In this document: piece after piece, positions 23,872 through 38,912 of the stretch | Numbering within the stretch: the first letter of the stretch is position 1 | How the letters are laid out: each line of letters opens with the position of its first letter | The notes under the pieces: generated by a model | The model's input: only the letters and a program-made list of their open reading frames with translations | What the model was told of the DNA's origin: nothing | The model's database searches: none | Source of the DNA: Hyphomicrobiales bacterium | GTDB lineage: Bacteria; Pseudomonadota; Alphaproteobacteria; Rhizobiales; Rhizobiaceae | Reading direction: 5' to 3' | DNA: 64,000 nucleotides | NCBI GenBank assembly: GCA_024244645.1 | Contig: JAAEOH010000065.1 | Location: 5,882-69,881 of the forward strand | Made by a program: the position numbers and the translations under genes

Positions 23872-24083
23872 GCAGGCGCGCGAACAAGCTTCCGCCTGGT
23901 TTCAAAAAACAAGCATTCGGCGTTGTCCTCGCCGTCCTCGGTATCATCGATACCGTTATGAACCTCATAACCGGCATCACGCTGGACGGCTTTTTCCTGT
24001 TTCTGATTGGCGCCGGCATTGTGCTTTTCGTTGTCGGGACCATACAACGGCGAAAGCACCGCTACCAGGCCACCTGCGGATAG
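23868..24083 (+). CDS. Small two-TM hypothetical protein
   Basis: ATGA coupling to ccdA; two hydrophobic helices. Confidence 0.6.
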   Translation: MSRRANKLPPGFKKQAFGVVLAVLGIIDTVMNLITGITLDGFFLFLIGAGIVLFVVGTIQRRKHRYQATCG

Positions 24084-25222
24084 AACCAGTGCTCGACCAT
24101 CCACTGGCTATCGTCCACCAGGGGTGTGGTATTCCGATCCTTGAAGGCCTTCGGAGGTGTACCCATTCGGGCTCCCATTGAGACGTTGTGGCATGAGTTG
24201 CAGCCCAGGGTCGGGGATTCGCGAGTTTCCACGTAAAGCAGGCCGAAGGGCATGGCGGCAACGAAGACGATCACGAAGGAAACCACCACACCGGCCAGCT
24301 TTATCTTACCGTGTTTTCTACCAGGTCGCGACAGGAGGCTGCTATATGGCCAGCTGCCGATTTCGGCGTCCCCCCTCCTTTTATTGCTGCCTCTGAAAAA
24401 GAAGGGCAGCAAGATCAGTATGATCAGCACGGTCAGCGGCAGACCGATACCAAGGAACGCCGCCATGGGGGCTTCGAAACTCATGAAAGGGCGCAGCAAG
24501 AACAGAATATACCATTCAGGTGCCGGTAAATATGTACCCTCGAGCGGCATCGGGATAACGTCTGGATCTTCTGTCGGCATGGGAATGTAAATCGCCAGCG
24601 CGGCGATAGCGACGAAGAAGGGCACACTTATCACGGCGTGCTTTGCAATGTATTTGCCGATACCGGCCTTTCTCTTGCGCAACACCGCAAGGATGTGGAA
24701 GTCGATGAGGATGTAAGTGATCACCGGCAGGATCACCGCGTGGGCGACAAAATTCCGACTAAGCGTAAATGCGTCAATCAGGAACGCTTTCAATACCGGT
24801 CCGGCGAGCGGCACGCTGCCCAGATAGTTGGGCACCATCTCCATGAACCAATAGGCCTTCCATTCCCAGGGCAGGATGAAACCGGTAACCAGCAGAGCCA
24901 AGATTGGCGGTATCAGTAGCCCGCCGGTGAGCCAGGAAATTCTGCACTGATAGTTCAGGAAGTCCTTTCTGAACAGACTTCTTGCGACGTGCACGACAAT
25001 CGCGGCGAAAATAAAAAATGCCAGCCAGCGGTGACTATCCCTAATCCAGGCACCAATGTTTAAGCCGCGATAAAGGCTTTGGACGCTGGCATATGCCTGC
25101 TGCAAATCGGGCTGATAGAACAGGGCCAAAAAAATGCCGGTCAGAAATTGCAGGATGAGCAGAATAACCGCGACACCGCCAAAATAGTGACGCCAGTGAT
25201 AGCGCTCTATTTTTGTTTTCAT
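24062..25222 (-). CDS. Fused cytochrome b (b6 + subunit IV-like) with a C-terminal c-heme
   Basis: Four heme-b His (DSHRW, VHVAR, AHAVILP, DFHIL), PEWY, CNSCH. Confidence 0.85.
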   Translation of the reverse strand: MKTKIERYHWRHYFGGVAVILLILQFLTGIFLALFYQPDLQQAYASVQSLYRGLNIGAWIRDSHRWLAFFIFAAIVVHVARSLFRKDFLNYQCRISWLTGGLLIPPILALLVTGFILPWEWKAYWFMEMVPNYLGSVPLAGPVLKAFLIDAFTLSRNFVAHAVILPVITYILIDFHILAVLRKRKAGIGKYIAKHAVISVPFFVAIAALAIYIPMPTEDPDVIPMPLEGTYLPAPEWYILFLLRPFMSFEAPMAAFLGIGLPLTVLIILILLPFFFRGSNKRRGDAEIGSWPYSSLLSRPGRKHGKIKLAGVVVSFVIVFVAAMPFGLLYVETRESPTLGCNSCHNVSMGARMGTPPKAFKDRNTTPLVDDSQWMVEHWFYPQVAW

Positions 25223-25225
25223 CGA

Positions 25226-26530
25226 TTACTCTCCATCTTTTTGCAGCAACACAAAACCTTCACCCATTTGATCCCCTTCAACGCGATAGAGATGCGCACG
25301 TTTGATCGGTGTTCCGTTTGCTGCCCAGCGACTCACGCCGGTTACCCCTTCGACTTCTTTCAGATTGACCAGAGCATCTCTAACCGTCTGGCTTTGCAGC
25401 GAGTCGGTAGCCTCAAGCGCCCGGGAAAGAAGGCCGAAGGCGTCATAAGCCAGGGCTGTAAATCTGTCGGGAACGGCGTCATTTCTGGCTATTTGCTCCG
25501 CCACGAAATCCTGCACCAGACGTGAGGGGCGATCGGGCGCGAAAGTGGTGTACAGCAAAGTGCCACGCGTAGCTTGCCCGCCCTGCTTGAGGAATTGTTC
25601 ACTGAACAGGTCTTCGCCGCCGATCAGGGGCAGCATGAGACCGTCATCCCTGGCGGCCTGTGCCAGTTGCGCAGCCTCCTGGGCCTCGCCCGTGAAGATG
25701 ATGGCCTGCAACCCCTCCGACCCGGCCTTCAGAGCCGTCACGACCTTGCCAATGTCTGTTTTCCCCGAAAACGTTTCATATGTGTCGGCCTCGACCAGAA
25801 TCTTGCCGCCGTGCCTTGGCACTGCTTTTTTGAACTCCGAAGCGATGCTCAGCGAGTAGTCGTAAGACGATGAGGTGACCAGGGCGAAATTCCTGTAACC
25901 CAGCTCGTTGGCAGCGTAACCGAGCATTTCGTCAATGGCGATTTCGTCAGGCAGGGAAAAGTGAAAGATGTAGCTGCCGCTTCTGCTGATTTTTCGTCTC
26001 GTCCCGATGGATATGAATACAGTTTGCGATTGGCTGGCCAGGTGGGTCGGCACGAATGTCGACCAGCCGGTCGGAGAAGAAAATATCGCCACGACGTTCT
26101 TTTCGATCAGCGCCGAGGCGATATCGGCGGTTTGTCCGGACCCGCCGCTGTTGTCGTGGTGAATGACTTCGATCTTCTGGCCACGCAAACCGCCCTGGGC
26201 ATTAAAATGGTCGGCCGCCATGACAATACCGGCAAGTACGGCCAGACCAAATTTGGCCTCAGCGCCGGTTTCCGGGCCGATCACCCCGACGATCAGCGCC
26301 CGTTCCTTTTCTTTTTCTTTCCTGCGCAATGACTTTGCTGCCGTGCCTTGTGGAGTGGCCTGGGTGGAGGCCAGCCATTCTGGATTGCCGGCCTTTAGCG
26401 GAGGAGGCTCCCCGCTGCGATTGCTCAGGGTCTCGAAGAAGACAACGGCAAAGACACCTGCGATGCCAATCAGGGAAATCAGAACTAGCTTGAAACGCAT
26501 CTGGCGAAACACTGGACCGCTAGCCTCCAT
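25226..26530 (-). CDS. Membrane-anchored branched-chain amino acid-type binding protein (LivK/Peripla_BP_6 fold)
   Basis: VGVIGPETG..GIVMAADHFNAQGGLRGQKIEV; AYDAF; EGVTG. Confidence 0.85.
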   Translation of the reverse strand: MEASGPVFRQMRFKLVLISLIGIAGVFAVVFFETLSNRSGEPPPLKAGNPEWLASTQATPQGTAAKSLRRKEKEKERALIVGVIGPETGAEAKFGLAVLAGIVMAADHFNAQGGLRGQKIEVIHHDNSGGSGQTADIASALIEKNVVAIFSSPTGWSTFVPTHLASQSQTVFISIGTRRKISRSGSYIFHFSLPDEIAIDEMLGYAANELGYRNFALVTSSSYDYSLSIASEFKKAVPRHGGKILVEADTYETFSGKTDIGKVVTALKAGSEGLQAIIFTGEAQEAAQLAQAARDDGLMLPLIGGEDLFSEQFLKQGGQATRGTLLYTTFAPDRPSRLVQDFVAEQIARNDAVPDRFTALAYDAFGLLSRALEATDSLQSQTVRDALVNLKEVEGVTGVSRWAANGTPIKRAHLYRVEGDQMGEGFVLLQKDGE

Positions 26531-27470
26531 CCTTCCACCGGTCCTTGCCGGCGAGGAGGTTCTTGACCAGTTTCTCCTCGAGCAGAATGACGTTTTGAGC
26601 CCGGTTGCTTTTGGCGAAGTAGCCCCGCCGCTTCCTGTCCCTGCTACCGATGCGCAGAACCTGGGCTTCTTTCTTCCCTTTTTCCTCGACGGTTACGGTG
26701 ACGAAGGGAGCTTCCAGGCCGTAACGGGTTAATTCCGCAGGACCTTCATCGATGAATGCCTTCACCGGTGTGTCCTTGATTGCATAAAGGGTCTCCAGCA
26801 CAGAGGCTTGATCGGCCTGCACCTGCTCCGGCTGAAGCATGTCCCAACGGCCGCGCTCGTGCACGATCACCACTTTGTCCCCGGTCCGTCGTGCAATCTC
26901 AATACGGCTCAGTTTGAGCGGATCGTAGGCCAGTGTTGACTTGTCCCGAAGGGCATAGACGCTAGCATCAGCCTCCCTGCGGACATCCGAATGGATGCGG
27001 TAGACCGCCGCCTCGCCCTTGAACTTGCCATAGGTCACATTGAGGGTTGGTCCCTTGTTGCCGAATTGCAGCGTTGTGACGTCATTACCAGTTCTAAAGG
27101 TGATTTCGAGTTCCGGTTCGGCCAACCCCAGTTCCACCAGCTTTGCCGAATCTGGATTGTTGAACAAAACCGCGTCCTTGCGCGATTTGACGATGTTTTT
27201 CAGCATCTTGGCGATGCCCTCGTCGTCGCCTCTTGCCAGCAGGGGTTGGTTCAGCCACCAACCTTCCTCGTTCCTGGTGACGCGCACCCGTATTCCGTTC
27301 TTATCTGTCCTGATCCAGAATTCCGCCACGTCGTCGATCTCGAAAGGTAACAGTTTAAGGTTTGCTTCCGCGATCTGTTCGTGTTCCCCGACCCTGTCTT
27401 CGATCAGCAGAAAGGCGCCAAACAGCCCGGCCAGGGCGATAAACCAAAAAATGGTTTTCTTGAACAGCAT
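26520..27470 (-). CDS. DUF4340-like periplasmic protein
   Basis: N-terminal TM, duplicated W-x-P..YGL..P..TV repeat; follows the GldG-like gene; start ATG 27470. Confidence 0.7.
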   Translation of the reverse strand: MLFKKTIFWFIALAGLFGAFLLIEDRVGEHEQIAEANLKLLPFEIDDVAEFWIRTDKNGIRVRVTRNEEGWWLNQPLLARGDDEGIAKMLKNIVKSRKDAVLFNNPDSAKLVELGLAEPELEITFRTGNDVTTLQFGNKGPTLNVTYGKFKGEAAVYRIHSDVRREADASVYALRDKSTLAYDPLKLSRIEIARRTGDKVVIVHERGRWDMLQPEQVQADQASVLETLYAIKDTPVKAFIDEGPAELTRYGLEAPFVTVTVEEKGKKEAQVLRIGSRDRKRRGYFAKSNRAQNVILLEEKLVKNLLAGKDRWKDGG

Positions 27471-29089
27471 CAAGACCTCCACCTTCGACGTCCGACCACG
27501 CCGACGCCGATCGCCAGAATCAGGGTCGGTGCAAGGATCACACAAAGCCAGAAAACGAAATTGCTTTGCGTATCGGTCAACGTCAGCGGTGTCAGTTCGG
27601 TTGGCTTCTTGCGCACCGAGACCAAGGCTGTCTCCTCGGCCAGCCAGCCGAACAGGTTGAGAAAGAAGTCCTTATTGCCCATCAGGTTGAGATAGGCGTT
27701 ACCGGCGAAGTCTGAATCACCGACCACGATAATTCGGCCCCAGCGGTTGACGCCTTCCTCGAGGTCGGCCTCCGGGGTCGGCATGCCTATTTCGTTCTGA
27801 TCGTTGGTCCTGGTAAGCGGTAGATCTCCGTCGGCCTTGACCTTGATGACGCTGACAGCGGCCAGGTTGATCGGCCCTCGCTGGTCCTCGGCCGGATTGA
27901 ACTCGATCTCCTCTTCGTCAAGCGTGCCTTTGTTCTTTGCCCAACTGCTGGACCCGGTTTTAGCCAGATTGTACTTGCCCTCAGCGGGCTCTTCCTGAAC
28001 TTCGATGGAGCGGGCAACCGGAAAGAAAGTAACGTAACTGAAGTCTCGACCGATCATATGTTTCTGGTTGTATTCCATGACCACCGACGTCAGGTAGTTG
28101 GCGCCAAGCATTTTGCTTTGCTTATCGATGATGATGTCGTTGTTGACCTTGAATCCGTAACCCTGCAGATGTTTGGAAATCTCGGGCGCCAGCAGCGGGT
28201 CGAGCAGAAACAGGACACTGCCGCCGCCGTCGACGTAGCGCCTGATCTTTTCCAGCTCGACCGGCAGGATGTCCTTTTGGGGCCCGGCAATAACAAGAAT
28301 GGCAGCATCTTCTGGCACGCGCTCCTCATTGACGAGCAGGAGTTCGCGAACTTTGTAGGTCTCCTTTTCAATCGCTTCTCTGGCCAATTTGTAGCCCGCC
28401 TTCTGTTCGTCCTGGAGACCCTTTTCACCGTGGCCCTTGAGGAAATATACGGTCTTGACCTCATCGCTTAAGACCTTGAGCAAGGCATTGGTAACCTTTT
28501 CCTCTGACTCGAAACCGACAGCCTCCTGATTGTCACCGGAACGGATCAAGGTCGTCCTATAGGAAGTGACACCGTACTTTGCGGTCTCGATAGGGCGTTT
28601 GTCGGGATCGACGAACCAAAAATTGAACTTCGGGGTGTGGTAGGAATACTCCTTGAGGAGATCGTGCATCGCCTGTCTGGATCTTTCGTCGCTTCTGTAA
28701 AAGGCAACGGCCTCGACACCGTTTTCCAAAGACTTCAAAATCTTCACGGTCTGCTGAGAGAGTGAATATCTACCGGTCTCGGTCAGGTCGACCCGCGCCT
28801 TGTAACGGACCGACATTACGCCGATCAAGCTGATGATGACCACGAATATGGCAATCATCACCGTGACGTTAGCGCCGTGCCTGGTCGACCGTTTGGAGAT
28901 GAAAGCTCCAATTTCAGAGAAATTGACATAGAAGAATATCAGCAGCGACAACAGGCCGCCCCACACCAATGAAAGCGGAATGACGCTGAATTCGCGCGAA
29001 ATGGCGTAAACGACGACTCCGGCGGCGACACTCGCCATGCCGACCAGCCCGAGGATAAAGAGTAATCTCCTGCCTGTCATCACCGCCAC
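27470..29089 (-). CDS. GldG-like ABC auxiliary membrane protein
   Basis: DLTETGRYSLSQQT, VYFLKGHGEK, GRIIVVGDSDF, N- and C-terminal TM helices. Confidence 0.85.
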   Translation of the reverse strand: MAVMTGRRLLFILGLVGMASVAAGVVVYAISREFSVIPLSLVWGGLLSLLIFFYVNFSEIGAFISKRSTRHGANVTVMIAIFVVIISLIGVMSVRYKARVDLTETGRYSLSQQTVKILKSLENGVEAVAFYRSDERSRQAMHDLLKEYSYHTPKFNFWFVDPDKRPIETAKYGVTSYRTTLIRSGDNQEAVGFESEEKVTNALLKVLSDEVKTVYFLKGHGEKGLQDEQKAGYKLAREAIEKETYKVRELLLVNEERVPEDAAILVIAGPQKDILPVELEKIRRYVDGGGSVLFLLDPLLAPEISKHLQGYGFKVNNDIIIDKQSKMLGANYLTSVVMEYNQKHMIGRDFSYVTFFPVARSIEVQEEPAEGKYNLAKTGSSSWAKNKGTLDEEEIEFNPAEDQRGPINLAAVSVIKVKADGDLPLTRTNDQNEIGMPTPEADLEEGVNRWGRIIVVGDSDFAGNAYLNLMGNKDFFLNLFGWLAEETALVSVRKKPTELTPLTLTDTQSNFVFWLCVILAPTLILAIGVGVVGRRRWRS

Positions 29090-29862
29090 CTTTTGGATTC
29101 AAGCGACCGCAGGGTCAGGAACAGGAACAGGACGGTAAAAATGACGAAGTAGATGATGTCTTCGGTATCGACAACGCCCTTGGCCAGGCTTTCGAGATGT
29201 TCGTTGATGGCGAGGTAAGAGATTATCTGGCCGAACGCGGCCGAAACAAACATCGTCGAATAGCTCATCAGCCAGAAGAAGAAGAGGATACTGATCGAAA
29301 GCGAGCCGGCGATAATCTGGTTCTCGGTCAGTGACGAGGTGAAGATGCCCAGTGAAATGAACGCCGCCCCCAACAAAAACAACCCGGCATACCCGGTAAG
29401 AATCGGCACAACTTCCGGCTCCCCCAAATTGATGAGCAGAAGCGGATAACTGATTGTAGAAAGCAGCATCGCTACAAACACCGTATAACAAGCCAGAAAC
29501 TTGCCAATAACGACCTCCGCGTCTCTTACCGGATACGTAAGAAGCAGTTCCATCGTGCCCGACTTCTTTTCATCGGCCAGCAGCTTCATTGTCAACAGTG
29601 GCAGCATCAGCAGCATGACGATACTGATATTTCCGAATAGCGGTCGCACAACGGTTTCGTTGACGTTCAGCAGGTTGTATTGCTTGGCAACCATGGGATT
29701 GGCCTGGGCCTGGAAACTCAGGATCGAAAAGCTTGCCAGTAGGTTGAAAAAGAGATAACCCGTCGCCGCCATAAAGATGGCGATGACCGCGTAGGCGATA
29801 AAAGAGCCAAAATAGGATTTGACGTCTTTCTTGAACACCAGCCCTATGTTCCTCAGATTCAC
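29080..29862 (-). CDS. ABC-2 permease (GldF-like)
   Basis: LTMKLLADEKKSGTMELLLTYP..GKFLA; SSLTENQIIA. Confidence 0.9.
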   Translation of the reverse strand: MNLRNIGLVFKKDVKSYFGSFIAYAVIAIFMAATGYLFFNLLASFSILSFQAQANPMVAKQYNLLNVNETVVRPLFGNISIVMLLMLPLLTMKLLADEKKSGTMELLLTYPVRDAEVVIGKFLACYTVFVAMLLSTISYPLLLINLGEPEVVPILTGYAGLFLLGAAFISLGIFTSSLTENQIIAGSLSISILFFFWLMSYSTMFVSAAFGQIISYLAINEHLESLAKGVVDTEDIIYFVIFTVLFLFLTLRSLESKRWR

Positions 29863-30800
29863 GCGCTGTCCTCTTCCGTCACGAGTTGAATGAAGACATC
29901 CTCCAAACTGGTTTCCACGGCACGCATCTCATTCAGTTGCCAGTTGTTGCTCACGACGACGGGCAGGATGCTTTGTTCGCCATCCGCCCCCCTCGCCATC
30001 TCAACGACAAATTCGTTGCAGCCGTTGGCCGCCGGTGTCGACTCGACTTTTCTTACCCCCTTGATCTCGCCGAGCGCCTTGGCGATCTGATCCAGATCAC
30101 CGGTGATCCGAAGAAAGAGCCTCGACGAGTCGCGCAGGTTGGCGGTCAAGTTGTCAGGCTTGTCCACCACAACCAGCTTGCCTTTGTTGATAATGACCAC
30201 CCGTTCGCACACCATGCTCACTTCGGGCAGGATATGAGTGCTGAGCACGATAGTGCGCTGCCCCGCCAGCTCGGTGATCAATTTGCGAATCTCCTTGATC
30301 TGCCTGGGATCGAGGCCGTTGGTGGGTTCGTCGAGAATAAGGATCTCTGGGTCGTTGACCAACGCTTGCGCCAATCCCACCCGCTGCCTGTAGCCCTTGG
30401 AAAGTTCGCCGATCGGCCGGCCGACAACCGCATCGAGGCCGCAATCGCCCATCGTTCTGGTCACGGTTTGCTTGACCGCCTTACTCTCCACGCCCTTTAC
30501 GCCGGCAACAAAGGCCAGGTAATCGTCGACAACCATGTCCCTGTAAAGAGGCACGCTTTCAGGCAGATAGCCGATCCGTTTGCGGACTTCGAAGGAATTC
30601 TCAAAGCAGTCGTAGCCAGCGACAACGGCCTTTCCAGAAGTGGCAGGAAAGAAACAGGTGAGGATGCGCATGGTGGTGGTTTTTCCAGCGCCGTTGGGGC
30701 CGAGAAACCCGATGGTCTCGCCTTTTTGCGCCGAAAAGGTTATGCCGTCGATGCCAAGATGCGAACCGTAGCTCTTGGTCAGGTTTTCTACTTCGATCAT
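29859..30800 (-). CDS. ABC ATPase (GldA-like)
   Basis: GPNGAGKTT, LSKGYRQR, ILDEPT. Confidence 0.93.
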   Translation of the reverse strand: MIEVENLTKSYGSHLGIDGITFSAQKGETIGFLGPNGAGKTTTMRILTCFFPATSGKAVVAGYDCFENSFEVRKRIGYLPESVPLYRDMVVDDYLAFVAGVKGVESKAVKQTVTRTMGDCGLDAVVGRPIGELSKGYRQRVGLAQALVNDPEILILDEPTNGLDPRQIKEIRKLITELAGQRTIVLSTHILPEVSMVCERVVIINKGKLVVVDKPDNLTANLRDSSRLFLRITGDLDQIAKALGEIKGVRKVESTPAANGCNEFVVEMARGADGEQSILPVVVSNNWQLNEMRAVETSLEDVFIQLVTEEDSA

Positions 30801-31342
30801 GATCGCTTGTCACTCGTTCCGAGATCGTAGCGTCTGTAGGAGCCCGGTGCGCGCGTGTTCTTGAGCGCGTCTTCGATCGGTCTCTGTTCAACCGGCGTCG
30901 CCAGCAGATCGATCAGTGCCTGATCCCTGTTGAGAAGCTTTCGCAGATCTTCTTCCGGCCAATCGCTCTCCCAATTGCCGATCAAAGCGTTCCAGGCTTG
31001 GGTAATGGCAACGATTTCCGCATCGCTGAACTGCCGAAGATTGAGGTCCTTGTTCCGGGCGTTGGTAATTTCCGTATACTTTTTCATAAAGTGCGTCACG
31101 ACAATAAAAGGCGGACCGCAGCGTGAACAGTACTTGAGCATTTTTTCTTCGCTGTGACAGGTCGAGCATCGTTCATAGGCGAGCGCAACCGCCTCGTCCG
31201 GGGTATAGACGATATATCCCAACGCCTTGGCTTCCTTGATGAATTCCCTGCCAACGGGATTGGGAACCAAGAAAATCAAGGCAAGGACGCCCAGAAAGAC
31301 AACAGGCGATGCCGCCGTGATAATCCAGCACTTCCTCATCAC
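30797..31342 (-). CDS. Membrane-anchored cytochrome c
   Basis: N-terminal TM, CSTCH followed by CSRC. Confidence 0.75.
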   Translation of the reverse strand: MMRKCWIITAASPVVFLGVLALIFLVPNPVGREFIKEAKALGYIVYTPDEAVALAYERCSTCHSEEKMLKYCSRCGPPFIVVTHFMKKYTEITNARNKDLNLRQFSDAEIVAITQAWNALIGNWESDWPEEDLRKLLNRDQALIDLLATPVEQRPIEDALKNTRAPGSYRRYDLGTSDKRS

Positions 31343-31485
31343 CTGATACCTTCAGCTTGTACAAAGAGATGGTCAGTCGCGCTGCAGCTTCTGGTTCCCT
31401 TTTTTGCCTGTCGCACTCCAATGGCTGCTGCGAGCATGCACCCTTTCTCCTGCCGAAACTTCCGGCAGCGATCAGTTTCCCGGTT

Positions 31486-32430
31486 TCAAAATCCCTTCTT
31501 GACCTTTGCATCGACTTCTTCAGGCTGCTTGCGCAAGCCGCCTCTAACGTAACCACCGCCCTTAAGCGCGCCTTCGCCACGCCCGGCTAGCGATAATTCG
31601 GTTTCCTCCTGGGCATCGTTGAAGTCGTCACTCTGGTTCGCCGTCAATGCATCAATATCGCCGGCAATCGGTTTGAAAGTCGTTTTCGGGTTCAGATATT
31701 CCTCGACTGTCTTCGGCGGTTTGGTGTCCGCCATCATCCGAATCCAGGCGACGACGTTCCAAATGTCCTGATCCTGCAGCAAATTGCCCCAAGCCGGCAT
31801 CGACGAAGACAGGTAGACTTCTTCACCACCGCCTTTGATCACTGTGAACAGCTGCAGATTAGACTTCTTGTTCATGTAGTCACCGTCGGTCAGGATACGC
31901 GGACGCGGCTCGATCTCCGAAGCGCTCGGCCCATCACCCTGCAAGCCCCAGCCGTGGCAGGCGATGCAATAGACGTAGTACCACTGTTTACCTTCATTGG
32001 GATCCGCACCCGGGACCAAGGTGGTTTTGAACGCCGGGGACCAATTGTTGGTCCATTGGTTGTAGACCGATTCACCCTCAGCCGGTTTTTCGACACGGTC
32101 CCACAATTCGGTTTTGCCGCCCTTACCTCCGTAGCCACTATCGCCCCGCGAGGGGGTGGTACCCTCGGTCCTTTTGCCGACGCCGGTCAAATAGTCGAAA
32201 GGAGCGACGCCATAGGTACTACCGGACACGCCCGAACTCATCAGCTCGGCTTCATCATCATAGGCCGCCGCGGCCGCTTCCAGTTCTGCTTCGGTGCGAA
32301 CCGGGCACACCACTTTGGTGCCGTCATAAAGCCTGCACCTTTCGGTCTCCGCGAACGATCCCGAATATGTCGACGCCGCAATTGCGGCACCCAACGCCAC
32401 CGCCCATTTGATCCTATTTTTTTGCTGCAT
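31486..32430 (-). CDS. Periplasmic monoheme cytochrome c with a long N-terminal extension
   Basis: CIACH, MPAWG; first 29 aa identical to the NosZ-like protein. Confidence 0.88.
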   Translation of the reverse strand: MQQKNRIKWAVALGAAIAASTYSGSFAETERCRLYDGTKVVCPVRTEAELEAAAAAYDDEAELMSSGVSGSTYGVAPFDYLTGVGKRTEGTTPSRGDSGYGGKGGKTELWDRVEKPAEGESVYNQWTNNWSPAFKTTLVPGADPNEGKQWYYVYCIACHGWGLQGDGPSASEIEPRPRILTDGDYMNKKSNLQLFTVIKGGGEEVYLSSSMPAWGNLLQDQDIWNVVAWIRMMADTKPPKTVEEYLNPKTTFKPIAGDIDALTANQSDDFNDAQEETELSLAGRGEGALKGGGYVRGGLRKQPEEVDAKVKKGF

Positions 32431-32672
32431 TCTTTAGTTCTCCCTGTATATCACGATCAGCTTCCAGAATTGGTCAGCTGGCTCGCCGTTTGGCTAATCA
32501 AGGGCAGCGGGATTTGGTGCATGGACGCACTTCCCACTATAGCTAGAACGATTGTCAGCATAATTCTGTTTTCAGCCGAGCAACTTGACTTAAATCAATC
32601 CACGCCTCACGCGTGCTCTCGCGCGACGCTATGTCGCATGGACCACGGTCATCCGCGATACCAACGAGCAGC
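32345..32672 (-). repeat. Direct repeat copy 1 (promoter + RBS + signal-peptide codons)
   Basis: 328 bp, 3 mismatches seen versus 38827-39154. Confidence 0.95.
32585..32598. promoter_or_regulatory. FNR-type box
   Basis: TTGAC-TTAA-ATCAA; TATGCT -10 on the minus strand (32562-32557) at class II spacing. Confidence 0.7.
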
Positions 32673-32764
32673 GCTATAAAGAGTAGGCACGGCAAGACAA
32701 CTTCACGATTTACGTTAGCTTATCGCAGGCCCATTGGACTTCGCGGGTGATCAGGACGCGAGAC

Positions 32765-33781
32765 CTATTTCAGCCACAGCTCCAGAATATCTTCGCCATG
32801 CAGTTTGTTGAGTGTGTTCTGCGAAATATCAGTGAACCAGATGTCGCCATTACAACCTACCGCGATGTCGTTTGGCTCTGTTTTTCCCAGCGCAACCTTT
32901 ACCTCCAGGAGTCTCCTGGAAACCGGGTTCATGGCTCCAAGCTTGCCTACATGGCCTAGCGTAAACAGGACATTTCCAAGCTGATCGATGTCCAATCCCT
33001 CGACGACACCCCGGACGGGGAGAACAAAGCCCTCAAATTGCCGCTTCGAAGGGTTGAACATCATCAATTTGGCGTTTCTGCGGCCGCCAAACCAGATCAG
33101 CCCGTTGCGATCGATAACAATATCCTTGGGCACCAGGAACGGTTCCGGGAAGTCAAACTCCTCGAATTTTCCGCTGAACGAATCGAACGAAGCCAATTTA
33201 TTCCCTTGGGATTCGATGAACCATATGATGCCCTTAGGGCTGACCGCGAGACCTGTCGGTTGGCTGTTGGACGTGGGGATTGGATATTCCAAGAAGCTCT
33301 CGGTCAGGGGATCAAATCTTCCGAGATTGTTGCCGAAGAACTCAGTGAACCAGATAACACCGTTATTATCGCTGCCGATCCGGCGTGGAACGCTGTCGAT
33401 GGTCGGGACTTCATACTCCTTGAAAGATTTGTCGGCCGGATCGAAGCGGCCTAATTGATTGGCGTCCTGCTCGAGGAACCAAACCACACCGGCGCTGTCT
33501 ATGGTGAGGTCGGAGGGGAAGCTCCTGTGAGTCGGGATGCCGTGTTCAGTGAAGGCCTTTTTGTCTGGGTCGAATTTAGTCAGTTGGTTTGCGTTGGCTT
33601 CCAGGACCCAGATAATGCAGTTTGGGCCGATGGTGATCCTGGACGGCAACGCGTTGGGCGTCGGCACCTCATAGGTTTCGACGTTCCAGCCAAGCTCGCT
33701 GGCAGCCCCAAACGTGAAAGCAAGCAGGCTGGCGAGGGCCGCGTGAGCGATAGCTTTGCTCCTCATTGCCCGGTCCGCCAC
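32765..33781 (-). CDS. Exported Vgb (virginiamycin B lyase)-fold beta-propeller
   Basis: Signal peptide; repeated P..I....G.IWF.E...N.LGRFDP....F.EY.IP blades. Confidence 0.85.
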   Translation of the reverse strand: MADRAMRSKAIAHAALASLLAFTFGAASELGWNVETYEVPTPNALPSRITIGPNCIIWVLEANANQLTKFDPDKKAFTEHGIPTHRSFPSDLTIDSAGVVWFLEQDANQLGRFDPADKSFKEYEVPTIDSVPRRIGSDNNGVIWFTEFFGNNLGRFDPLTESFLEYPIPTSNSQPTGLAVSPKGIIWFIESQGNKLASFDSFSGKFEEFDFPEPFLVPKDIVIDRNGLIWFGGRRNAKLMMFNPSKRQFEGFVLPVRGVVEGLDIDQLGNVLFTLGHVGKLGAMNPVSRRLLEVKVALGKTEPNDIAVGCNGDIWFTDISQNTLNKLHGEDILELWLK

Positions 33782-35052
33782 CGCCGGAATATGAACAGTA
33801 CCGCAAAGAGTGATGCGCCGGAGACGATCAGTAGGGCCGCAACGGCGTAGCCTGTGAGAGAAGTCGAATATTCCTCCGGAATAGAGTCTGAAGCGGCGGT
33901 CGTTTTTACATCGACTGTGGCTGCGGCCATGGCTGCTCGTGCCTTGGTCATGGAAAGCACCCCCAACCTTTTTGCCTCGGTGCCGGTTTCAGAAAACCAA
34001 AGGCGATCACGTTTATCGTCGATTGCCATGTCTCCAGGCAGACTGGCATAGGTCGGGATGTCGAATTCCTTGAACTGCGCCGAAGCGGGATCGAAGATGC
34101 CGACTTTGTTGCCCATATACTCCAGAAACCAGATTTCGCCGCTACCACTGGCCGCGATGGCATTAGGAAGGCCTCCGGCGGTCGGAATCAATGCCTCATA
34201 AAACCTTTCCCCTTTGGGATAAAACACGCTGAGACGGTTGGTTCGCAGCTCGACAAACCAGACCCTGCCCGCTCCATCCACGGTCAGCGTTTCCGGATTA
34301 GCAAAGCGTGTTGGAATTTCATATTCGCTGAATGCGGTGCTGGCAGGAACAAACTTGCCGATCTTATTGGCGTTGGCCTCGGCAAACCAGATGGCATCGC
34401 TGCCGTCGATAGCAATCCCCTTGGGATAGCTGTGCAGCGTGGGAATCGGGTATCCTTGCAAACCGGACCCACCTGGCTCGAAGCTGTAGATCTTGTTTTC
34501 TTTAGGAGACAGAAACCAAACCAGCCCCTTTCGGTCGACTACCAGGTCATCCGGCGAAACATTTCCCTGGTTCGCACCGATCTCGCGAACCGCGTCCATA
34601 TCTGCAAGGAGATATCTCTTAAATGAGCCGGTGGCCGGGTCGAACTGACCGAGGAATCCGGTACCATCATCGGAATTGGCCCATCGACGAACACTGAACC
34701 AGACGCTTCCGCCGGGCGCAAGGGTGATGCGTGATGGCCCAACGTTGCCCCAGTCGGAAGGCAGGGGGTGAGCCTCGAACGTCTTTCTCTCGGGGTCGAA
34801 CATGACGATATTCTTCCCGACTTTCTCGGCAAACCAGACGTTTCCGCTGGGGCCCACCGCTATGGAGTGCGGGGAACTGATTGCGTCTGGGACCACGAAT
34901 TCCTGGATCACCGGATCTGTCGTCTGGGCGTCAGCCTGGCCCCCTAACGGCCCTGCGAGCAGTAAAATGCAGAAAAGCAAACCTGCCGCCCAGGGCCCCG
35001 GATCGGTCCGTGCCGCAAAAAAATGCCTCCGAAGGATGCGACAGATTCGCAT
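33763..35052 (-). CDS. Exported Vgb-fold beta-propeller with a C-terminal TM anchor
   Basis: Same blade repeats; signal peptide from ATG 35052; C-terminal hydrophobic helix followed by RRWR. Confidence 0.85.
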   Translation of the reverse strand: MRICRILRRHFFAARTDPGPWAAGLLFCILLLAGPLGGQADAQTTDPVIQEFVVPDAISSPHSIAVGPSGNVWFAEKVGKNIVMFDPERKTFEAHPLPSDWGNVGPSRITLAPGGSVWFSVRRWANSDDGTGFLGQFDPATGSFKRYLLADMDAVREIGANQGNVSPDDLVVDRKGLVWFLSPKENKIYSFEPGGSGLQGYPIPTLHSYPKGIAIDGSDAIWFAEANANKIGKFVPASTAFSEYEIPTRFANPETLTVDGAGRVWFVELRTNRLSVFYPKGERFYEALIPTAGGLPNAIAASGSGEIWFLEYMGNKVGIFDPASAQFKEFDIPTYASLPGDMAIDDKRDRLWFSETGTEAKRLGVLSMTKARAAMAAATVDVKTTAASDSIPEEYSTSLTGYAVAALLIVSGASLFAVLFIFRRWRTGQ

Positions 35053-35057
35053 GGGAT

Positions 35058-35735
35058 CTACCACGTCATCGTCGGTTCGTAGTAATGCCTCAATTGCCAG
35101 TTCGCGTCCTTGTACGATTGCGCTCCATCCGTCGCGCCGGCCCGGTAACCGCCGACGTTGATCTGTAACTGCCGGGATCCCAGATAGTATTCGGCCATAT
35201 CGGCAGGCGGCAACGCCTGCCTTACTCCCATCATCGGGTTGTGGCATGAAGCGCAACCGGTGGTCTTGGCTGGATAGCCAGTGCCGATCACGCTGGCCGT
35301 CATGCTCACCCAAATTGCCAGGGCGCCGATACCCATCAGCAACTTCACTCCAGTCGACAATCTTTTGCCGGCGGTCTTCTTGCGGCCGAAGACAAACGGC
35401 ATAGCGAGCCCCGCCAGAAGAATGCCGACAGGGGCCCAGAAAGTTCCCAGCTGCCGCCATATGGAGGCCTCGCCGGTCAGGTACCAGAACGGCTGGAAGA
35501 CGAAGATAAGGTACCACTCAGGGGCTGGAACATACTCCCCTTCGGTGGGAAGCGGCGGCATGTTGACGTCCGTCGGTACGCGATAAAAATAAGCCAAACC
35601 GATAACCAGGGCGATGGTGATGGTGCTGACGGCTACGGTCTTTAGCGCGTGGCGCGGCCAGAATCGGTGGAATTCCTGCGGATACGGTGGATCGTATTTT
35701 GGATCACGAATGAGGTCCGGTTGCTCGTCGGTCAT
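35058..35735 (-). CDS. Cytochrome b subunit IV (PetD/QcrC-like) fused to a c-heme
   Basis: FWPRH, PAPEWY, CASCH. Confidence 0.85.
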   Translation of the reverse strand: MTDEQPDLIRDPKYDPPYPQEFHRFWPRHALKTVAVSTITIALVIGLAYFYRVPTDVNMPPLPTEGEYVPAPEWYLIFVFQPFWYLTGEASIWRQLGTFWAPVGILLAGLAMPFVFGRKKTAGKRLSTGVKLLMGIGALAIWVSMTASVIGTGYPAKTTGCASCHNPMMGVRQALPPADMAEYYLGSRQLQINVGGYRAGATDGAQSYKDANWQLRHYYEPTMTW

Positions 35736-35756
35736 GCCTTGCTCTCCACACCGTTC

Positions 35757-36389
35757 CTATAATGGTTCGGATATGCCGTGCTTTTTCACCATCTTGAAAT
35801 GGAAACTGAGGAGCACGAATAGTATCAGCGGCAAAATCACGATATGCGTTATGAAGCTCCGGTAGATGGTAAAGGTGTTGAGCACGAAACGTTCCATGTA
35901 CTCGCCGATAAGTGGCCAGGTAGCGACATAGTCGACCCAGATTGCATAGGACCAATAGGCACGCCAGTCCCAGGGCAGGACAATGCCGCTGAGTACAAAC
36001 AGGAAAACCACCAGGAACTGGAGCACGCCGGAAATCCAGTTGAGTTCCCGGGGATTGTGGTACGCCTTGCGATAAAACACAGTGACCAGGTGGGTGAAAA
36101 CCGCGGCCAGTAACAGTGTCGCGCCCCACCTGTGCATGTTCCTGGCCAGCCAGCCGAGTGGGACCTCGTTGCTCATTAGATCGATACTGTTGAGGGCCTC
36201 TTTGGGATCCGGCGTATAGAAGAACAGCATGAAGACGCCAGTGATCACCTGAAGTATGATGATCAGCAGGGAAATGCCACCAAAACAGTAGAAGAAAGAA
36301 TGCGCCGGCACCGCTTGTGCCTTCTTTGCGTCAGTCCATTGCCTGATGCCGGTTCTTGCGTCCAACCAGTCATAGATTTTCGCTATCAT
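35757..36389 (-). CDS. Cytochrome b6-like (PetB/QcrB) subunit
   Basis: FYCFGG (heme ci Cys), NMHRW, THL, THIVILP, SFHF. Confidence 0.9.
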   Translation of the reverse strand: MIAKIYDWLDARTGIRQWTDAKKAQAVPAHSFFYCFGGISLLIIILQVITGVFMLFFYTPDPKEALNSIDLMSNEVPLGWLARNMHRWGATLLLAAVFTHLVTVFYRKAYHNPRELNWISGVLQFLVVFLFVLSGIVLPWDWRAYWSYAIWVDYVATWPLIGEYMERFVLNTFTIYRSFITHIVILPLILFVLLSFHFKMVKKHGISEPL

Positions 36390-36991
36390 TGGCTTTTGGC
36401 TTTACTGTTGCTCCCACCGGAAGCAGTATCCAAGATTTCCAGCTGGTTGGTTTTCGCGATGCTTTCGCGATCCTGATCGTCCGTGTCGCCCCTGAAATCG
36501 AGTTTCCAGGTATTTCTTTCCTGGTCCAGGTTCAGGTGAACCGGGGTGCGCACGGCGTAAATGCCGCCGAAACTGGATGGCATTTTATATTCAATCGTGA
36601 CGATCGCATGTTTGTCCTGGACCCTACTCTCGATGATCTCTGCCTTGAAACCGGGGGGATACCTGTTGACGATCCCGAGGAATAGGGCCTGGTCGGTTCG
36701 CGATTGGTCGCCGCTCGTTAGCTTGTAGGCTTCGTTGATCAACAGGTTACCGCCCCTGATCTTCGCCTCGGAGACATATTCGTAGAATCTCTCAACCACC
36801 GAGACAGCAGTTTCTTCGGGTAGTGGTGTTTCCTGATACCCAAAATTGATAGCAGCGAAGCCGGCACCGGCCAGCAGCAAAGCCGTGAACAAACCAAAAA
36901 AAAGAGCCTTCATGCGCAAATCTTGCAACATCTCTCGTCCGGATTTCCGCACAGTCCAAAATTCCTTGTCCTGCGGCGGTACTGCGCCCAA
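36386..36991 (-). CDS. Membrane-anchored periplasmic hypothetical protein
   Basis: Single TM helix (start may be ATG 36913); no Cys; ATGA-coupled to cytochrome b6. Confidence 0.7.
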   Translation of the reverse strand: MGAVPPQDKEFWTVRKSGREMLQDLRMKALFFGLFTALLLAGAGFAAINFGYQETPLPEETAVSVVERFYEYVSEAKIRGGNLLINEAYKLTSGDQSRTDQALFLGIVNRYPPGFKAEIIESRVQDKHAIVTIEYKMPSSFGGIYAVRTPVHLNLDQERNTWKLDFRGDTDDQDRESIAKTNQLEILDTASGGSNSKAKSQ

Positions 36992-37098
36992 GCCGGGTGC
37001 CGAGCTTGCCGCTGTCGTTTCGTTCTCCGGTGCTGGCCGGTAACGCTTAAGCCTTGCAGCGGTGAAGCGCCCCTACCGGATCTACTAGCCGTGTCGCG

Positions 37099-37120
37099 CC
37101 TCCCGTTTTGCAACGGGAGG
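37099..37120. terminator. Hairpin downstream of the nosZ-like gene
   Basis: CCTCCCGTT-TTGC-AACGGGAGG; no U-tract, so it may be a stabiliser rather than a terminator. Confidence 0.5.
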
Positions 37121-37160
37121 ATGGGACGCAGCAAGCCGTTCACGCGAGATCTCCGGCAGA

Positions 37161-38912
37161 CTAGAGTCCCTTTGCTCGCGGTGCGATCTCAAGCTCGTCG
37201 GGAGAGACAAGACCAGGCAGAGTTTGCGCCTTGTCATACTCGCCCACGGATAGATTCGAGGCCTCGCCCTGAGGATCGTCGACGAAGAACGACCCACGCA
37301 TTTCCAGGTGCAAAGGACCGCAGAAATGCTGGCAAAATATTGCGTACTCGCCTGCGATGTCCGCTACGAACTCGGCTACTGCCGTCACCCCGCGCGGTGC
37401 GTCCAGGTTAGTCCGCAGACCATAGGGCCCGTAAATCACGAAACCCATGGTGACATCCGGATTCTTGGTAATGCCCGCTGCTCGGTCGATGTTGGTAACG
37501 AAGATGCGTACCTTGTCGCCCTTGTTGACGCGGATTTGTCGTGGGATATAGCCGTAACTAAAGGCTTTGACATGGATTTCCTTGACCCCGTCCTTCGTCC
37601 GGATACCTGGCTTCTCGTTGGATTTAGGCAGCAGATAGACCTTGGCCTTGGCTCTATGGGCGGGACGAATGTCGATGGCGGCTTCAGTAATCAGGCCGCC
37701 TTTCTCAGCCTGGCCCATGTTCCAGCGTTTTATCTGTGAGGCGTAGATCGACTTGGCGTTGTGAGGCTCGCCGTCCACCGGGACGATCTTCAGCGTCTTA
37801 CCGTAGGTCGGGCTCTCTTCCCGGGCATCCCACAGTTCGAAGTTAACCGGATAGACCAGGCCGGTCGGATTGAACAGTCCAGTCGAAAATTTGTTCAGCG
37901 AGATAACATAGTCGTTGTTGGCGCTGATCGCGATGTGGCCGGTCCGGTAATGGGTCGGAATCTCATCCACCACCTCGAGTTTCTTCAGATCGATCTTCAC
38001 GTTGGAATCCGAGACGAAGCAACTTTCGTACGCGTATTTGGAAGTCAGGCCTTCCGGGCTATCCTTGCCTGGTTCGTAAGTACCGCCGTCTTTGTCGTAG
38101 ACATCCATCACCGAGTGCAATGGACCGGCGCAGGTTGGGATAACCTTTTTTACCGCCAGTTTTTCGACGTCGATCACGGTCATTGTTGCCGACAGTTTGT
38201 CGCTGACCAGAACCAAGGTGCTCTCGGGAATGACATCGGTGCCGTGTGGGTTCTTGCCGACCGGAATTTCCTTGATGAACTTGAACGGGTTGGTCGAGAA
38301 CACGCCTACCGTGGAGTGGTAATAATTACCTGAAAAGACGTAGCGGCCTTTTTTGTCGACATCAAGGTAATCAGGGGCGCTGGGCGCGGGACCCCAATCG
38401 ATAATTTCGGTCTTGCCGGTGGCAATCTCGGTTTTCGACATCTTGCCGGAATATTCCCCGGTGCCGTAGAGGAACTTACCGGTATCGTCCAGCGCAATGT
38501 GGTGAACACCAAACGGAAACGGCAGTGAAATCAGACGTTCGAGGAAACCGGTCTGCAGGTTGATAACGCCGATTGTATTGGCACCCTTGTCGTTGACGTA
38601 CAGATATTTGCCGTCCGGAGTGAGATTCTTATTGCCGGCGTTGGTGCCGCTGAATACCGGCTCGTGCAGATCGACGCCAACGTCGATGTGACGGTACGTC
38701 CGCAGGCTGGGAAGCCCGATGATTGCAACCCTGCCATCAAGGCCGCCGGCGTTGTACAGTAACATCGGGTCCTTTGTCGGATGATCTGTTGCTTCTACTT
38801 CAACGTTCTGCCAATCAGGTAAATCCGTCTCCGCGAACGATCCCGAATATGTCGACGCCGCAATTGCGGCACCCAACGCCACCGCCCATTTGATCCTATT
38901 TTTTTGCTGCAT
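37161..38912 (-). CDS. nosZ: Divergent nitrous-oxide reductase-like multicopper protein (beta-propeller + cupredoxin), Sec signal
   Basis: AGGLDGRVAIIGLPSLR, DGKYLYVNDK, KNPHG, GPLH, HYRTGH, LNKFS, EPH, CQHFCGPLHLEM; ligand substitutions described in findings, so activity is not established. Confidence 0.85.
   Translation of the reverse strand: MQQKNRIKWAVALGAAIAASTYSGSFAETDLPDWQNVEVEATDHPTKDPMLLYNAGGLDGRVAIIGLPSLRTYRHIDVGVDLHEPVFSGTNAGNKNLTPDGKYLYVNDKGANTIGVINLQTGFLERLISLPFPFGVHHIALDDTGKFLYGTGEYSGKMSKTEIATGKTEIIDWGPAPSAPDYLDVDKKGRYVFSGNYYHSTVGVFSTNPFKFIKEIPVGKNPHGTDVIPESTLVLVSDKLSATMTVIDVEKLAVKKVIPTCAGPLHSVMDVYDKDGGTYEPGKDSPEGLTSKYAYESCFVSDSNVKIDLKKLEVVDEIPTHYRTGHIAISANNDYVISLNKFSTGLFNPTGLVYPVNFELWDAREESPTYGKTLKIVPVDGEPHNAKSIYASQIKRWNMGQAEKGGLITEAAIDIRPAHRAKAKVYLLPKSNEKPGIRTKDGVKEIHVKAFSYGYIPRQIRVNKGDKVRIFVTNIDRAAGITKNPDVTMGFVIYGPYGLRTNLDAPRGVTAVAEFVADIAGEYAIFCQHFCGPLHLEMRGSFFVDDPQGEASNLSVGEYDKAQTLPGLVSPDELEIAPRAKGL

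Follow-up and report, generated by a model that had tools for sequence, protein, structure and literature searches.

Two cytochrome b paralogues without a linked Rieske gene in a clade III nitrous-oxide reductase gene cluster

Introduction

How might a nitrous-oxide reductase be coupled to the membrane quinol pool when the cytochromes b encoded beside it retain a quinol-oxidation motif, and no Rieske protein is encoded with them? To our knowledge, nitrous-oxide (N2O) reductase is the sole known biological sink of N2O, a gas with a strong greenhouse effect. Recognition of the clade III enzymes reportedly dates only from 2025, and we know of no electron supply or maturation route for them. We analyzed this question in a stretch of 64,000 nucleotides (the window) and in related loci and genomes.

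Results

Gene cluster of the lactonase-type nitrous-oxide reductase

The cluster has the following layout, with positions given in the window.

37161..38912, minus strand: L-NosZ, clade III lactonase-type nitrous-oxide reductase with CuA motif CQHFCGPLHLEM (NCBIfam NF052460, Pfam)
36386..36931 (open reading frame up to 36991), minus strand: NTF2-fold periplasmic small protein in the "Rieske slot"
35757..36389, minus strand: cytochrome b6-like subunit with four haem-b His and haem-ci Cys35 (PF00033)
35058..35735, minus strand: subunit IV-like protein with three TM helices, PEWY Qo motif, and C-terminal haem-c domain
33763..35052, minus strand: exported Vgb-lyase-fold beta-propeller with C-terminal TM anchor (PF24684, E 3e-42)
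32765..33781, minus strand: second exported Vgb-lyase-fold beta-propeller (PF24684, E 1.5e-44)
31486..32430, minus strand: periplasmic monohaem class I cytochrome c (CIACH, Met211; PF13442, PF00034)
30797..31342, minus strand: membrane-anchored 181-aa protein with CxxCH and CxxC (30 orthologues)
26520..30800, minus strand: ABC ATPase, ABC-2 permease, GldG-like auxiliary, and DUF4340-like protein (Pfam, conserved synteny)
25226..26530, minus strand: anchored Peripla_BP_6 binding protein (PF13458, E 1.8e-47)
24062..25222, minus strand: fused paralogue of cytochrome b, subunit IV, and mini haem-c, without haem-ci Cys (PF00033)

L-NosZ scores 803.6 bits against the NF052460 equivalog cut-off of 700, and its Pfam matches are Lactonase, YNCE, nos_propeller, and Cupredoxin_1. 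This context of the b units had no place in their original description. The enzyme and its setting agree with the clade III L-nosZ clusters of He et al. (Nature 2025;646:152), which, in the available parts of two reviews (PMC13477213, PMC13685413), lack nosR and nosDFYL, 'encode b-type cytochromes', and have ABC transporter genes beside nosZ. Pfam scans of all genes in the present cluster likewise found no nosR or nosDFYL; the genome has weak NosD matches, all on contigs other than that of the cluster. A motif scan of the cluster found no 4Fe-4S motif. The available text of the same reviews says only 'b-type cytochromes', and describes neither the b6/subunit IV–haem c architecture, nor a missing Rieske protein, two paralogues, or an NTF2-fold partner.

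The L-nosZ gene lies ~230 bp upstream of the operon for the slot protein, b6, and subunit IV. The first propeller starts with the ATG at 35052, 6 nt past the subunit IV stop, and a gap of 3 nt separates the Peripla_BP_6 gene from the fused cytochrome b gene downstream of it. Neither propeller has a conserved His, Cys, or Met (32 orthologues of the first and 39 of the second compared). The cytochrome c, which is kept in 43 loci and immediately follows L-nosZ in loci of the beta/zeta type, is the likely electron donor to L-NosZ. The 181-aa protein has no Pfam match, and its C59, C62, H63, C72, and C75 are kept in 30 orthologues.

Split cytochrome b6/subunit IV–haem c pair

The b6-like protein is 210 amino acids in length (PF00033, E 2.7e-36) and aligns over its full length with the cyanobacterial cytochrome b6 2zt9_A (E 1.9e-41), its YCFGG falling on the YCLGG that bears the haem-ci Cys. 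The haem ligands H86, H100, H182, and H197, the four His of helices B and D for two bis-His haem-b sites, occur in 34 of 34 sequences, and C35 in 33 of 33. In subunit IV, PAPEWY, the Qo motif of the ef loop, occupies residues 70–75 and CASCH residues 161–165. C161, C164, and H165 are present in 33 of 33 sequences, and E73 and H217 each in 32 of 33; one alignment has P70, P72, W74, C161, C164, H165, and H217 invariant. These motifs and their conservation bear out the original observation of a split pair, with a haem-ci Cys in CFGG of b6 and with PEWY and CASCH in subunit IV.

With the Bacillus-type menaquinol:cytochrome c reductase b6c (QcrA/QcrB/QcrC) and the cyanobacterial and chloroplast b6f complexes, the module shares a split b6 and subunit IV, PEWY, a haem-ci Cys in YC(F/L)GG, a 14-residue spacing of the helix-D His pair, and a C-terminal KxGISxPL motif. 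In QcrC, as in the protein described here, a c haem follows at the C-terminus of subunit IV. Unlike b6c and b6f, however, the module has no Rieske subunit, and its b6 reaches only 190 bits in the NCBIfam cytochrome b6 model (PRK03735, cut-off 325). The second-best NCBIfam match, also below its cut-off, is ExtP, the cytochrome b of the Geobacter selenite/tellurite operon (185 bits, cut-off 290).

Subunit IV–haem c has no Pfam or PDB sequence match, and its C-terminal haem-c domain fits no known cytochrome c family. In contrast to class I His/Met cytochromes c and cytochrome f, this is a mini-domain of ~65 residues with a conserved second His, His217, as candidate distal ligand. Relatives form 272 protein clusters in a set of 5.8 billion proteins, under the names 'hypothetical' or 'quinol-cytochrome oxidoreductase complex cytochrome b subunit'. 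In three loci of Burkholderiales type, subunit IV–haem c occurs without a b6 gene directly upstream.

Fused paralogue

The fused form (386 amino acids; PF00033 at the N-terminus, E 1.1e-28) contains PAPEWY, has CNSCH at 341–345, and carries HYFGG where the ci Cys would be. As noted from the window alone, it has four haem-b His, PEWY, and CNSCH and no ci Cys: H64, H78, H161, H176, E236, W237, CNSCH, and H378 are present in all 14 sequences. It is 34% identical to b6 and 25% identical to subunit IV, the c domain included. Its match to ExtP (NF040969) is 119.5 bits, as compared with 185.2 bits for the split form and a cut-off of 290. AF2 modeled the fused form poorly: the mean pLDDT is 61.8, and values in the c domain are mostly <50.

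In the tree, both b paralogues fall in one clade (support 100/98), which is separate from cyanobacterial b6 and has all sampled Rieske-linked cytochromes b outside it. The two units descend from a single Rieske-less lineage through a duplication whose products are the split form, with its haem-ci Cys, and the fused form, which lacks that Cys. Ligands and motifs are conserved far beyond chance in both units, which are intact and evolve under selection.

Protein in the Rieske slot

The open reading frame directly upstream of b6 (36386–36991) had been described as a Cys-free membrane-anchored protein, and it is indeed free of Cys and has an N-terminal hydrophobic anchor. Translation likely starts at the ATG at 36931, and there is a 4-nt overlap between the stop and the start of b6. 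The protein has no Pfam or NCBIfam match. The core of its AF2 model has pLDDT >90, and the top Foldseek matches are NTF2/ketosteroid-isomerase-like (3hx8, E 2.6e-4). Membrane-anchored here, it is a lipoprotein with an LAGC lipobox in most homologues. No Cys, His, or Met is conserved in 26 homologues, so this is not a redox subunit. The NTF2-fold protein may instead be a structural or a lipid/quinone-facing subunit.

Absence of a Rieske protein

Neither a motif scan nor a purpose-built Rieske HMM detected a Rieske protein in the window, and a six-frame search of the genome with PF00355 gave nine matches, none on the contig of the window (C65). The absence at the module had been noted from the window alone, along with the possibility that homologous clusters normally include a Rieske gene and that its loss here is decay. 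In 157 related loci (2.08 Mb), the purpose-built HMM found zero bc-type Rieske genes while recovering five of five spiked controls. The closest PF00355 match is at least 38 kb from the module in 21 genomes. All carriers of the module are metagenome-assembled genomes (MAGs), and seven of the 21 (G003, G004, G009, G010, G014, G015, and G017) lack any bc-type Rieske protein, a count weakened by MAG incompleteness; one of these, G010, has a 1.1-Mb contig. The Rieske proteins of these seven genomes are mostly NirD-like and otherwise other small soluble ones.

Together, these results refute decay and make borrowing of a Rieske protein from elsewhere in the cell unlikely. That the Rieske gene was recently lost here, leaving decaying remnants of cytochrome b genes, is suggested by its absence alone and has a negligible probability, since reading frames are intact, ligands are invariant in 14–34 orthologues from several phyla, and synteny is conserved in >100 loci. 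The data support the absence as a stable, selected property. Borrowing was among the mechanisms originally put forward: the complex would use the bc1 Rieske protein encoded on contig C292, where the genome has its one canonical Rieske/cytochrome b pair, in an ordinary Q cycle. In favor of this, the module still has PEWY and its two b haems. This reading is disfavored by the seven genomes with only small soluble Rieske proteins, by the lack of bc-type Rieske genes in the 157 loci, and by the position of the module clade apart from every sampled Rieske-linked cytochrome b, and we regard it as highly improbable.

Cytochromes b without a Rieske protein have precedents. SoxC of Sulfolobus SoxABCD is a cytochrome b homologue whose operon is not known to encode a Rieske protein. 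Operons of Geobacter ExtP (NF040969) and of the actinobacterial 'PDWF-FeS' branch (PMC4122944) likewise lack one. In these systems, the partners of cytochrome b are Fe-S proteins, multihaem cytochromes, or an oxidase, whereas the module has no Fe-S protein and its outlet would be the one c haem in the fused domain of subunit IV.

Distribution and synteny

The b units are tightly linked to L-nosZ, always without a linked Rieske gene. All 21 genomes tested that have the module also carry L-NosZ. Of 401 genomes sampled evenly across the class, two carry L-NosZ, and both of these have the module and the fused paralogue. The order L-nosZ, anchored slot protein, b6, subunit IV, two propellers, cytochrome c, ABC genes, and fused b recurs in Alpha-, Gamma-, and Deltaproteobacteria, Magnetococcales, Nitrospirota, and Nitrospinota. 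Beta- and Zetaproteobacteria have a rearranged order, with fused b, slot protein, b6, and subunit IV in succession, and L-nosZ usually lies on the same contig at a distance of 11–25 kb, or of 78 kb in one genome. Locus L023 of the survey belongs to the groundwater MAG nzgw271, in which the L-nosZ-like gene was transcribed (PMC11033732).

Two genomes without L-NosZ have a b6/subunit IV–haem c pair of the same clade adjoining HAO-like and HaoB genes. This occurrence suggests that the pair is a portable quinone-coupling module. Electrons in the HAO context are expected to run in the opposite direction, into the quinone pool.

As also put forward originally, the split and fused units may form a heterodimer; it would be asymmetric, with haem ci on one monomer and not on the other, and would stand in for two separate homodimeric complexes. 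Both paralogues occur together in 19 of the 21 genomes and have parallel branching orders in their trees, and their genes adjoin in one operon with that of the slot protein in beta/zeta-type loci; within the sample of the class, only the two L-NosZ genomes have the fused form, and the two HAO-context ones do not. Those two HAO-context genomes, however, have the split pair without a fused paralogue, so that the pair presumably forms a complex alone, and in the window the paralogues are 10 kb apart in different translationally coupled gene groups. We consider a heterodimer rather unlikely.

Discussion

In our view, the two b units likely serve the clade III L-NosZ cluster as its module for electron transfer in the membrane, and are Rieske-independent relatives of the b6f and bc complexes. 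Judging from their sequences and gene neighbors, they probably carry electrons from membrane quinol to L-NosZ. Oxidation of quinol would take place toward the periplasm, in the Qo-like pocket with its conserved PEWY, and may follow a Q cycle or, as originally suggested, a non-Q-cycle route. The c haem, predicted at the periplasmic end of subunit IV helix G and probably bis-His (His165/His217), would be the electron outlet in place of both the Rieske cluster and cytochrome f/c1, and electrons may then pass to the cytochrome c (31486–32430) and on to CuA of L-NosZ. The low-potential chain is probably still used, for Q-cycle-like recycling or transmembrane electron transfer, because neither the b haems nor the ci site has been given up in any strict sense of conservation. 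The pair found with an HAO-like octahaem protein and HaoB in genomes without L-NosZ suggests that the module may be reversible or portable.

A different role would be maturation or reductive activation of L-NosZ in the manner of NosR, or mainly cytochrome c:quinone reduction, without provision of catalytic electrons. NosR, NosD, and NosL are absent from the cluster (Pfam; PMC13685413), the module is always found with an ABC system and two non-redox propellers in L-nosZ clusters, and for the HAO-like/HaoB coupling in two genomes electron flow into quinone is expected. Yet L-nosZ clusters contain no other quinol dehydrogenase, though the enzyme needs one, and a dedicated cytochrome c is conserved beside L-nosZ. 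Such a role appears distinctly unlikely.

A bis-His c haem is usually low-potential, and thus an odd stand-in for a Rieske centre at +300 mV. A bifurcating Q cycle without Rieske, in which the membrane-tethered bis-His c haem of subunit IV would accept the first electron at Qo in a split/fused asymmetric heterodimer, is a scheme we rate as quite unlikely. If true, it would be a second, independent solution to electron bifurcation at the Qo site, and HAO and other periplasmic enzymes could be coupled to quinone by the same portable module.

In clade II nos systems, a dedicated membrane quinol dehydrogenase and c-type cytochromes are likewise encoded with nosZ, as with NosGH-C1-C2 and the Rieske/cytochrome bc complex of Wolinella (Hein et al. 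2017, cited in PMC13685413). In contrast to the module, NosGH are NapGH-type Fe-S proteins without sequence kinship to it, and the Wolinella bc complex has a Rieske protein.

The module is the only candidate quinol dehydrogenase found in the cluster and in the surveyed related loci, and the energy gained from clade III N2O respiration depends on how it works. A b6-type cytochrome with the Qo motif, both b haems, and the haem-ci site is Rieske-free in at least six bacterial phyla or classes, and offers a natural test of whether quinol oxidation and bifurcation at a Qo site need a Rieske centre. Its HAO-like/HaoB neighborhood suggests an overlooked portable alternative to the NapC/NrfH-type and bc-type quinone-coupling modules.

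The cytochrome b units lie in a clade III L-nosZ cluster

Searches of Pfam and NCBIfam identified 14 co-oriented genes on the minus strand (24062–38912), and this cluster is of the clade III L-nosZ type, named for the lactonase-type nitrous-oxide reductase (L-NosZ).

Genes of the cluster, with positions in the window
37161–38912, minus strand: propeller-plus-cupredoxin protein, the clade III lactonase-type N2O reductase (equivalog NF052460, 803.6 bits, cut-off 700)
36386–36931, minus strand: small protein in the Rieske slot (anch), without a family match in Pfam or NCBIfam
35757–36389, minus strand: cytochrome b6-like protein (b6; Pfam/NCBIfam)
35058–35735, minus strand: subunit IV-like protein with CASCH at its end (suIV)
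33763–35052, minus strand: exported Vgb-lyase-fold propeller 1
32765–33781, minus strand: exported Vgb-lyase-fold propeller 2
31486–32430, minus strand: monohaem cytochrome c
30797–31342, minus strand: anchored protein of 181 amino acids with CxxCH and CxxC (p181)
26520–30800, minus strand: set of ABC ATPase, ABC-2 permease, GldG-like and DUF4340-like proteins
25226–26530, minus strand: anchored Peripla_BP_6 protein (PBP)
24062–25222, minus strand: fused cytochrome b, subunit IV and CNSCH protein (fused b)

Start/stop overlaps or very short gaps couple the genes from anch through b6 and suIV to the two propellers, and likewise those of a second group running from p181 and the ABC set to PBP and fused b. 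The propellers are ruled out as metal or redox sites, as none of their His, Cys or Met residues is conserved. In p181, which belongs to no known family, the conserved CxxCH is followed eight residues on by a conserved CxxC (YCxRCGPPF), and together these motifs may form a haem plus a thiol or metal site.

L-NosZ (38826–38912) and the 314-amino acid cytochrome c (32344–32430) have an identical 29-residue N-terminal signal peptide (MQQKNRIKWAVALGAAIAASTYSGSFAET). The cluster border is marked by an IS240-type DDE transposase fragment directly upstream of L-nosZ (39231–39566), which hints at horizontal acquisition. At the other end, divergent from the adjoining fused b gene, the plus strand encodes two TlpA/ResA-like thioredoxin-fold proteins and a CcdA/DsbD-like membrane protein (22186–23871) that may serve in haem-c or Cu-site maturation.

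The order nosZ, anch, b6, suIV, propeller, propeller, cytochrome c, p181, ABC, PBP, fused b recurs in many lineages. Beta- and Zetaproteobacteria have the order fused b, anch, b6, suIV, propellers, p181, and their L-nosZ shares the contig at a distance of usually 11–25 kb (78 kb in one genome). All 21 tested genomes with the module encode L-NosZ. Across an even sample of the window's class, L-NosZ occurs in 2 of 401 genomes, both of which carry the module and the fused paralogue. Only metagenome-assembled genomes (MAGs) were found when a cultured carrier was sought among the best 80 of 98 relatives. The roles of the genes neighboring clade III nosZ are described as untested (PMC13477213), and literature other than He et al. 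(Nature 2025) yielded nothing on the b module beyond the phrase "b-type cytochromes".

Some loci in other genomes depart from this order. In seven Nitrospirota and Delta-type loci (L018, L020, L021, L023, L035, L039 and L044), b6 and subunit IV are separated by an additional gene for a monohaem cytochrome c; in L018 (10521–11951) this cytochrome is fused to an N-terminal domain of ~350 residues with parallel beta-helix (NosD-like) repeats. A Pfam search for NosD in the window's own genome gave weak generic beta-helix matches only, all on other contigs. Three Burkholderiales-type loci (L146, 5848–6690; L157; L163) have suIV-haem c and propellers with no b6 directly upstream, that slot being held by unrelated opposite-strand genes.

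Sequence features of the cytochrome b units

The original prediction had listed a split b6/subunit IV pair, a fused paralogue, their haem motifs and the lack of a Rieske gene, and all of these were found in the window. Over its whole length, the split b6 can be aligned with the cytochrome b6 of cyanobacteria (E 1.9e-41). The YCFGG motif of the split protein matches the haem-ci-binding YCLGG, its C-terminal KKHGISEPL matches RKQGISGPL, and its helix-D His pair, read from the sequence, is separated by 14 residues, as is typical of b6-type proteins. Identity to the fused paralogue is 34% for b6 and 25% for subunit IV, and the second of these matches takes in an unusual C-terminal domain present in both proteins (G-C-x-S-C-H-N...G...PP...W...H-x-(Y/F)-x-P...W).

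The orthologues compared span Alpha-, Beta-, Gamma-, Delta- and Zetaproteobacteria, Magnetococcales, Nitrospirota and Nitrospinota. They show little or no variation in the four His that bind the b haems, in the PEWY Glu and Trp, in CxxCH and in a second His close to the C-terminus (H217 of subunit IV; H378 of the fused protein), or, for the split form only, in the ci Cys. This second His is the sole candidate distal ligand conserved in both paralogues, and thus the c haem is probably bis-His. The pattern of hydrophobic stretches and charged loops in subunit IV, compared with the b6f topology, places the c haem on the periplasmic face, just past helix G. In the PDB, neither sequence nor profile searches with subunit IV-haem c gave a significant match, and the AF2 model of the fused paralogue (mean pLDDT 61.8, c domain mostly <50) was unusable for placing the c haem.

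The absence of a Rieske protein is conserved

We examined whether a Rieske gene is a usual member of homologous clusters, the condition set in the original prediction for its own refutation. A custom Rieske HMM, built from 22 positive sequences and recovering five of five spiked controls, detected no bc-type Rieske protein in the window or in any of 157 related loci (2.08 Mb). Its single match in these loci was an unrelated soluble Rieske ferredoxin in the suf operon of L146. A six-frame PF00355 search of the window's own genome (99% complete) gave nine matches, none on the window's contig; the genome has one canonical Rieske/cytochrome b pair, on contig C292. In 21 other module-carrying genomes, the PF00355 match nearest to the module is on a different contig or no less than 38 kb off, and seven of these genomes have small soluble Rieske proteins only (NirD-like in six) and no CTHLGC...CPCH protein. 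With no bc-type Rieske protein encoded on the window's contig, in the 157 loci, around the module in 21 genomes or anywhere in seven of these, the absence is a conserved property.

The six-frame search, a motif scan and the custom HMM rule out that a Rieske domain lies unrecognized in a different reading frame or forms part of another cluster gene, and conservation and synteny exclude decay or recent loss. A partner with 4Fe-4S centres, of the kind found in Geobacter Cbc or NosGH, is likewise rejected, as no 4Fe-4S motif occurs anywhere in the cluster. Borrowing of a host Rieske protein, suggested in the original prediction, would require supply in trans; the seven genomes without a bc-type Rieske make this unlikely, not absolutely so, since all are MAGs.

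Five Gallionella-type MAGs with the module (G009, G010, G014, G015 and G017; loci L047–L050 and L055) each have one NirD-like Rieske protein, and a canonical Rieske/cytochrome b pair is absent from all of them. These five may be without any bc1 complex.

The protein in the Rieske slot

In most loci, anch is conserved immediately upstream of b6, and most homologues are lipoproteins with an L-A-G-C lipobox. The lipobox Cys has been lost in the window and its closest relatives, leaving an uncleaved anchor. The core, predicted at pLDDT >90, consists of three helices followed by a four-stranded sheet, and its best structural matches are NTF2/ketosteroid-isomerase-like proteins. Cys, His and Met are absent from its invariant residues, which together with the NTF2 fold excludes anch as a redox substitute for a Rieske protein. 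Speculatively, its role might be structural or lipid/quinone-facing.

Evolution of the split and fused forms

Using the four-helix b domain, we constructed a maximum-likelihood tree that included 34 split b6 proteins, 14 fused paralogues and 14 Rieske-adjacent cytochromes b, the last including cyanobacterial b6, the bc1 of the window's genome and split Rieske-linked b6 types of Nitrospinota and Nitrospirota. The split proteins form one clade (support 99/94), as do the fused ones (100/100), and the two join in a clade (100/98) that leaves all 14 sampled Rieske-adjacent cytochromes b outside. The tree is most simply read as descent from one Rieske-less ancestor, through duplication and a gene fission or fusion. 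Branching order is similar within the split and fused clades, which suggests that the paralogues were inherited together.

Many L-NosZ genomes (L114–L120) also encode long cytochrome b homologues (460–750 amino acids, no CxxCH), in two copies ~4 kb apart in about ten of 21 genomes. These form a deep separate clade (100/100) and are absent from the window's own genome.

Comparison with known systems and proposed mechanism

In architecture the module comes closest to the b6f/Bacillus b6c type, with which it shares a split b6, haem ci and a subunit IV with a c haem; the Rieske subunit that defines this type is missing from the module. Module scores fall below the NCBIfam cut-offs of both the cytochrome b6 and ExtP families. 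SoxC of Sulfolobus is a Rieske-less cytochrome b homologue, and ExtP/Cbc of Geobacter is another, in a different form. So too is the PDWF-FeS actinobacterial branch (PMC4122944). Rieske-less cytochromes b are already known in other forms, and the cluster type that houses the module was published in 2025.

The sites for two b haems, haem ci (in the split form) and one c haem are conserved, as is the Qo motif. In the mechanism we propose, quinol would be oxidized at a Qo-like pocket, and the tethered c haem, as a candidate replacement for the Rieske centre, would hand the electrons to the cluster's cytochrome c, from which they would reach CuA of L-NosZ. The low-potential chain would serve in Q-cycle-like recycling or transmembrane transfer; its retention as a whole argues for its use.

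The module outside L-nosZ clusters

Two alphaproteobacterial genomes, from another family of the window's class, have the b6/subunit IV-haem c pair (L101, 9347–13526; L124, 6986–11076) and no L-NosZ, fused paralogue, NTF2 protein or propellers. Their proteins are 67–68% (b6) and 54–55% (subunit IV-haem c) identical to those of the window. The pair is followed by a 600-amino acid HAO-family multihaem protein and a HaoB equivalog (285 bits, cut-off 200), and the one HAO-context b6 of the two that was included in the tree falls within the clade of the L-NosZ modules. The pair occupies the position of cycA/cycB in nitrifiers.

A Gallionella MAG (L028, 9992–14192) has b6 and subunit IV-haem c alone, with hydrogenase-4 subunit B (equivalog, 928 bits) and a NuoH/HyfC-like gene 135 nt downstream of the pair; this adjacency may be coincidence.

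The occurrence of the pair apart from L-NosZ, fused b, the NTF2 protein and the propellers suggests that b6 and subunit IV-haem c constitute a self-sufficient, portable quinone-coupling unit.
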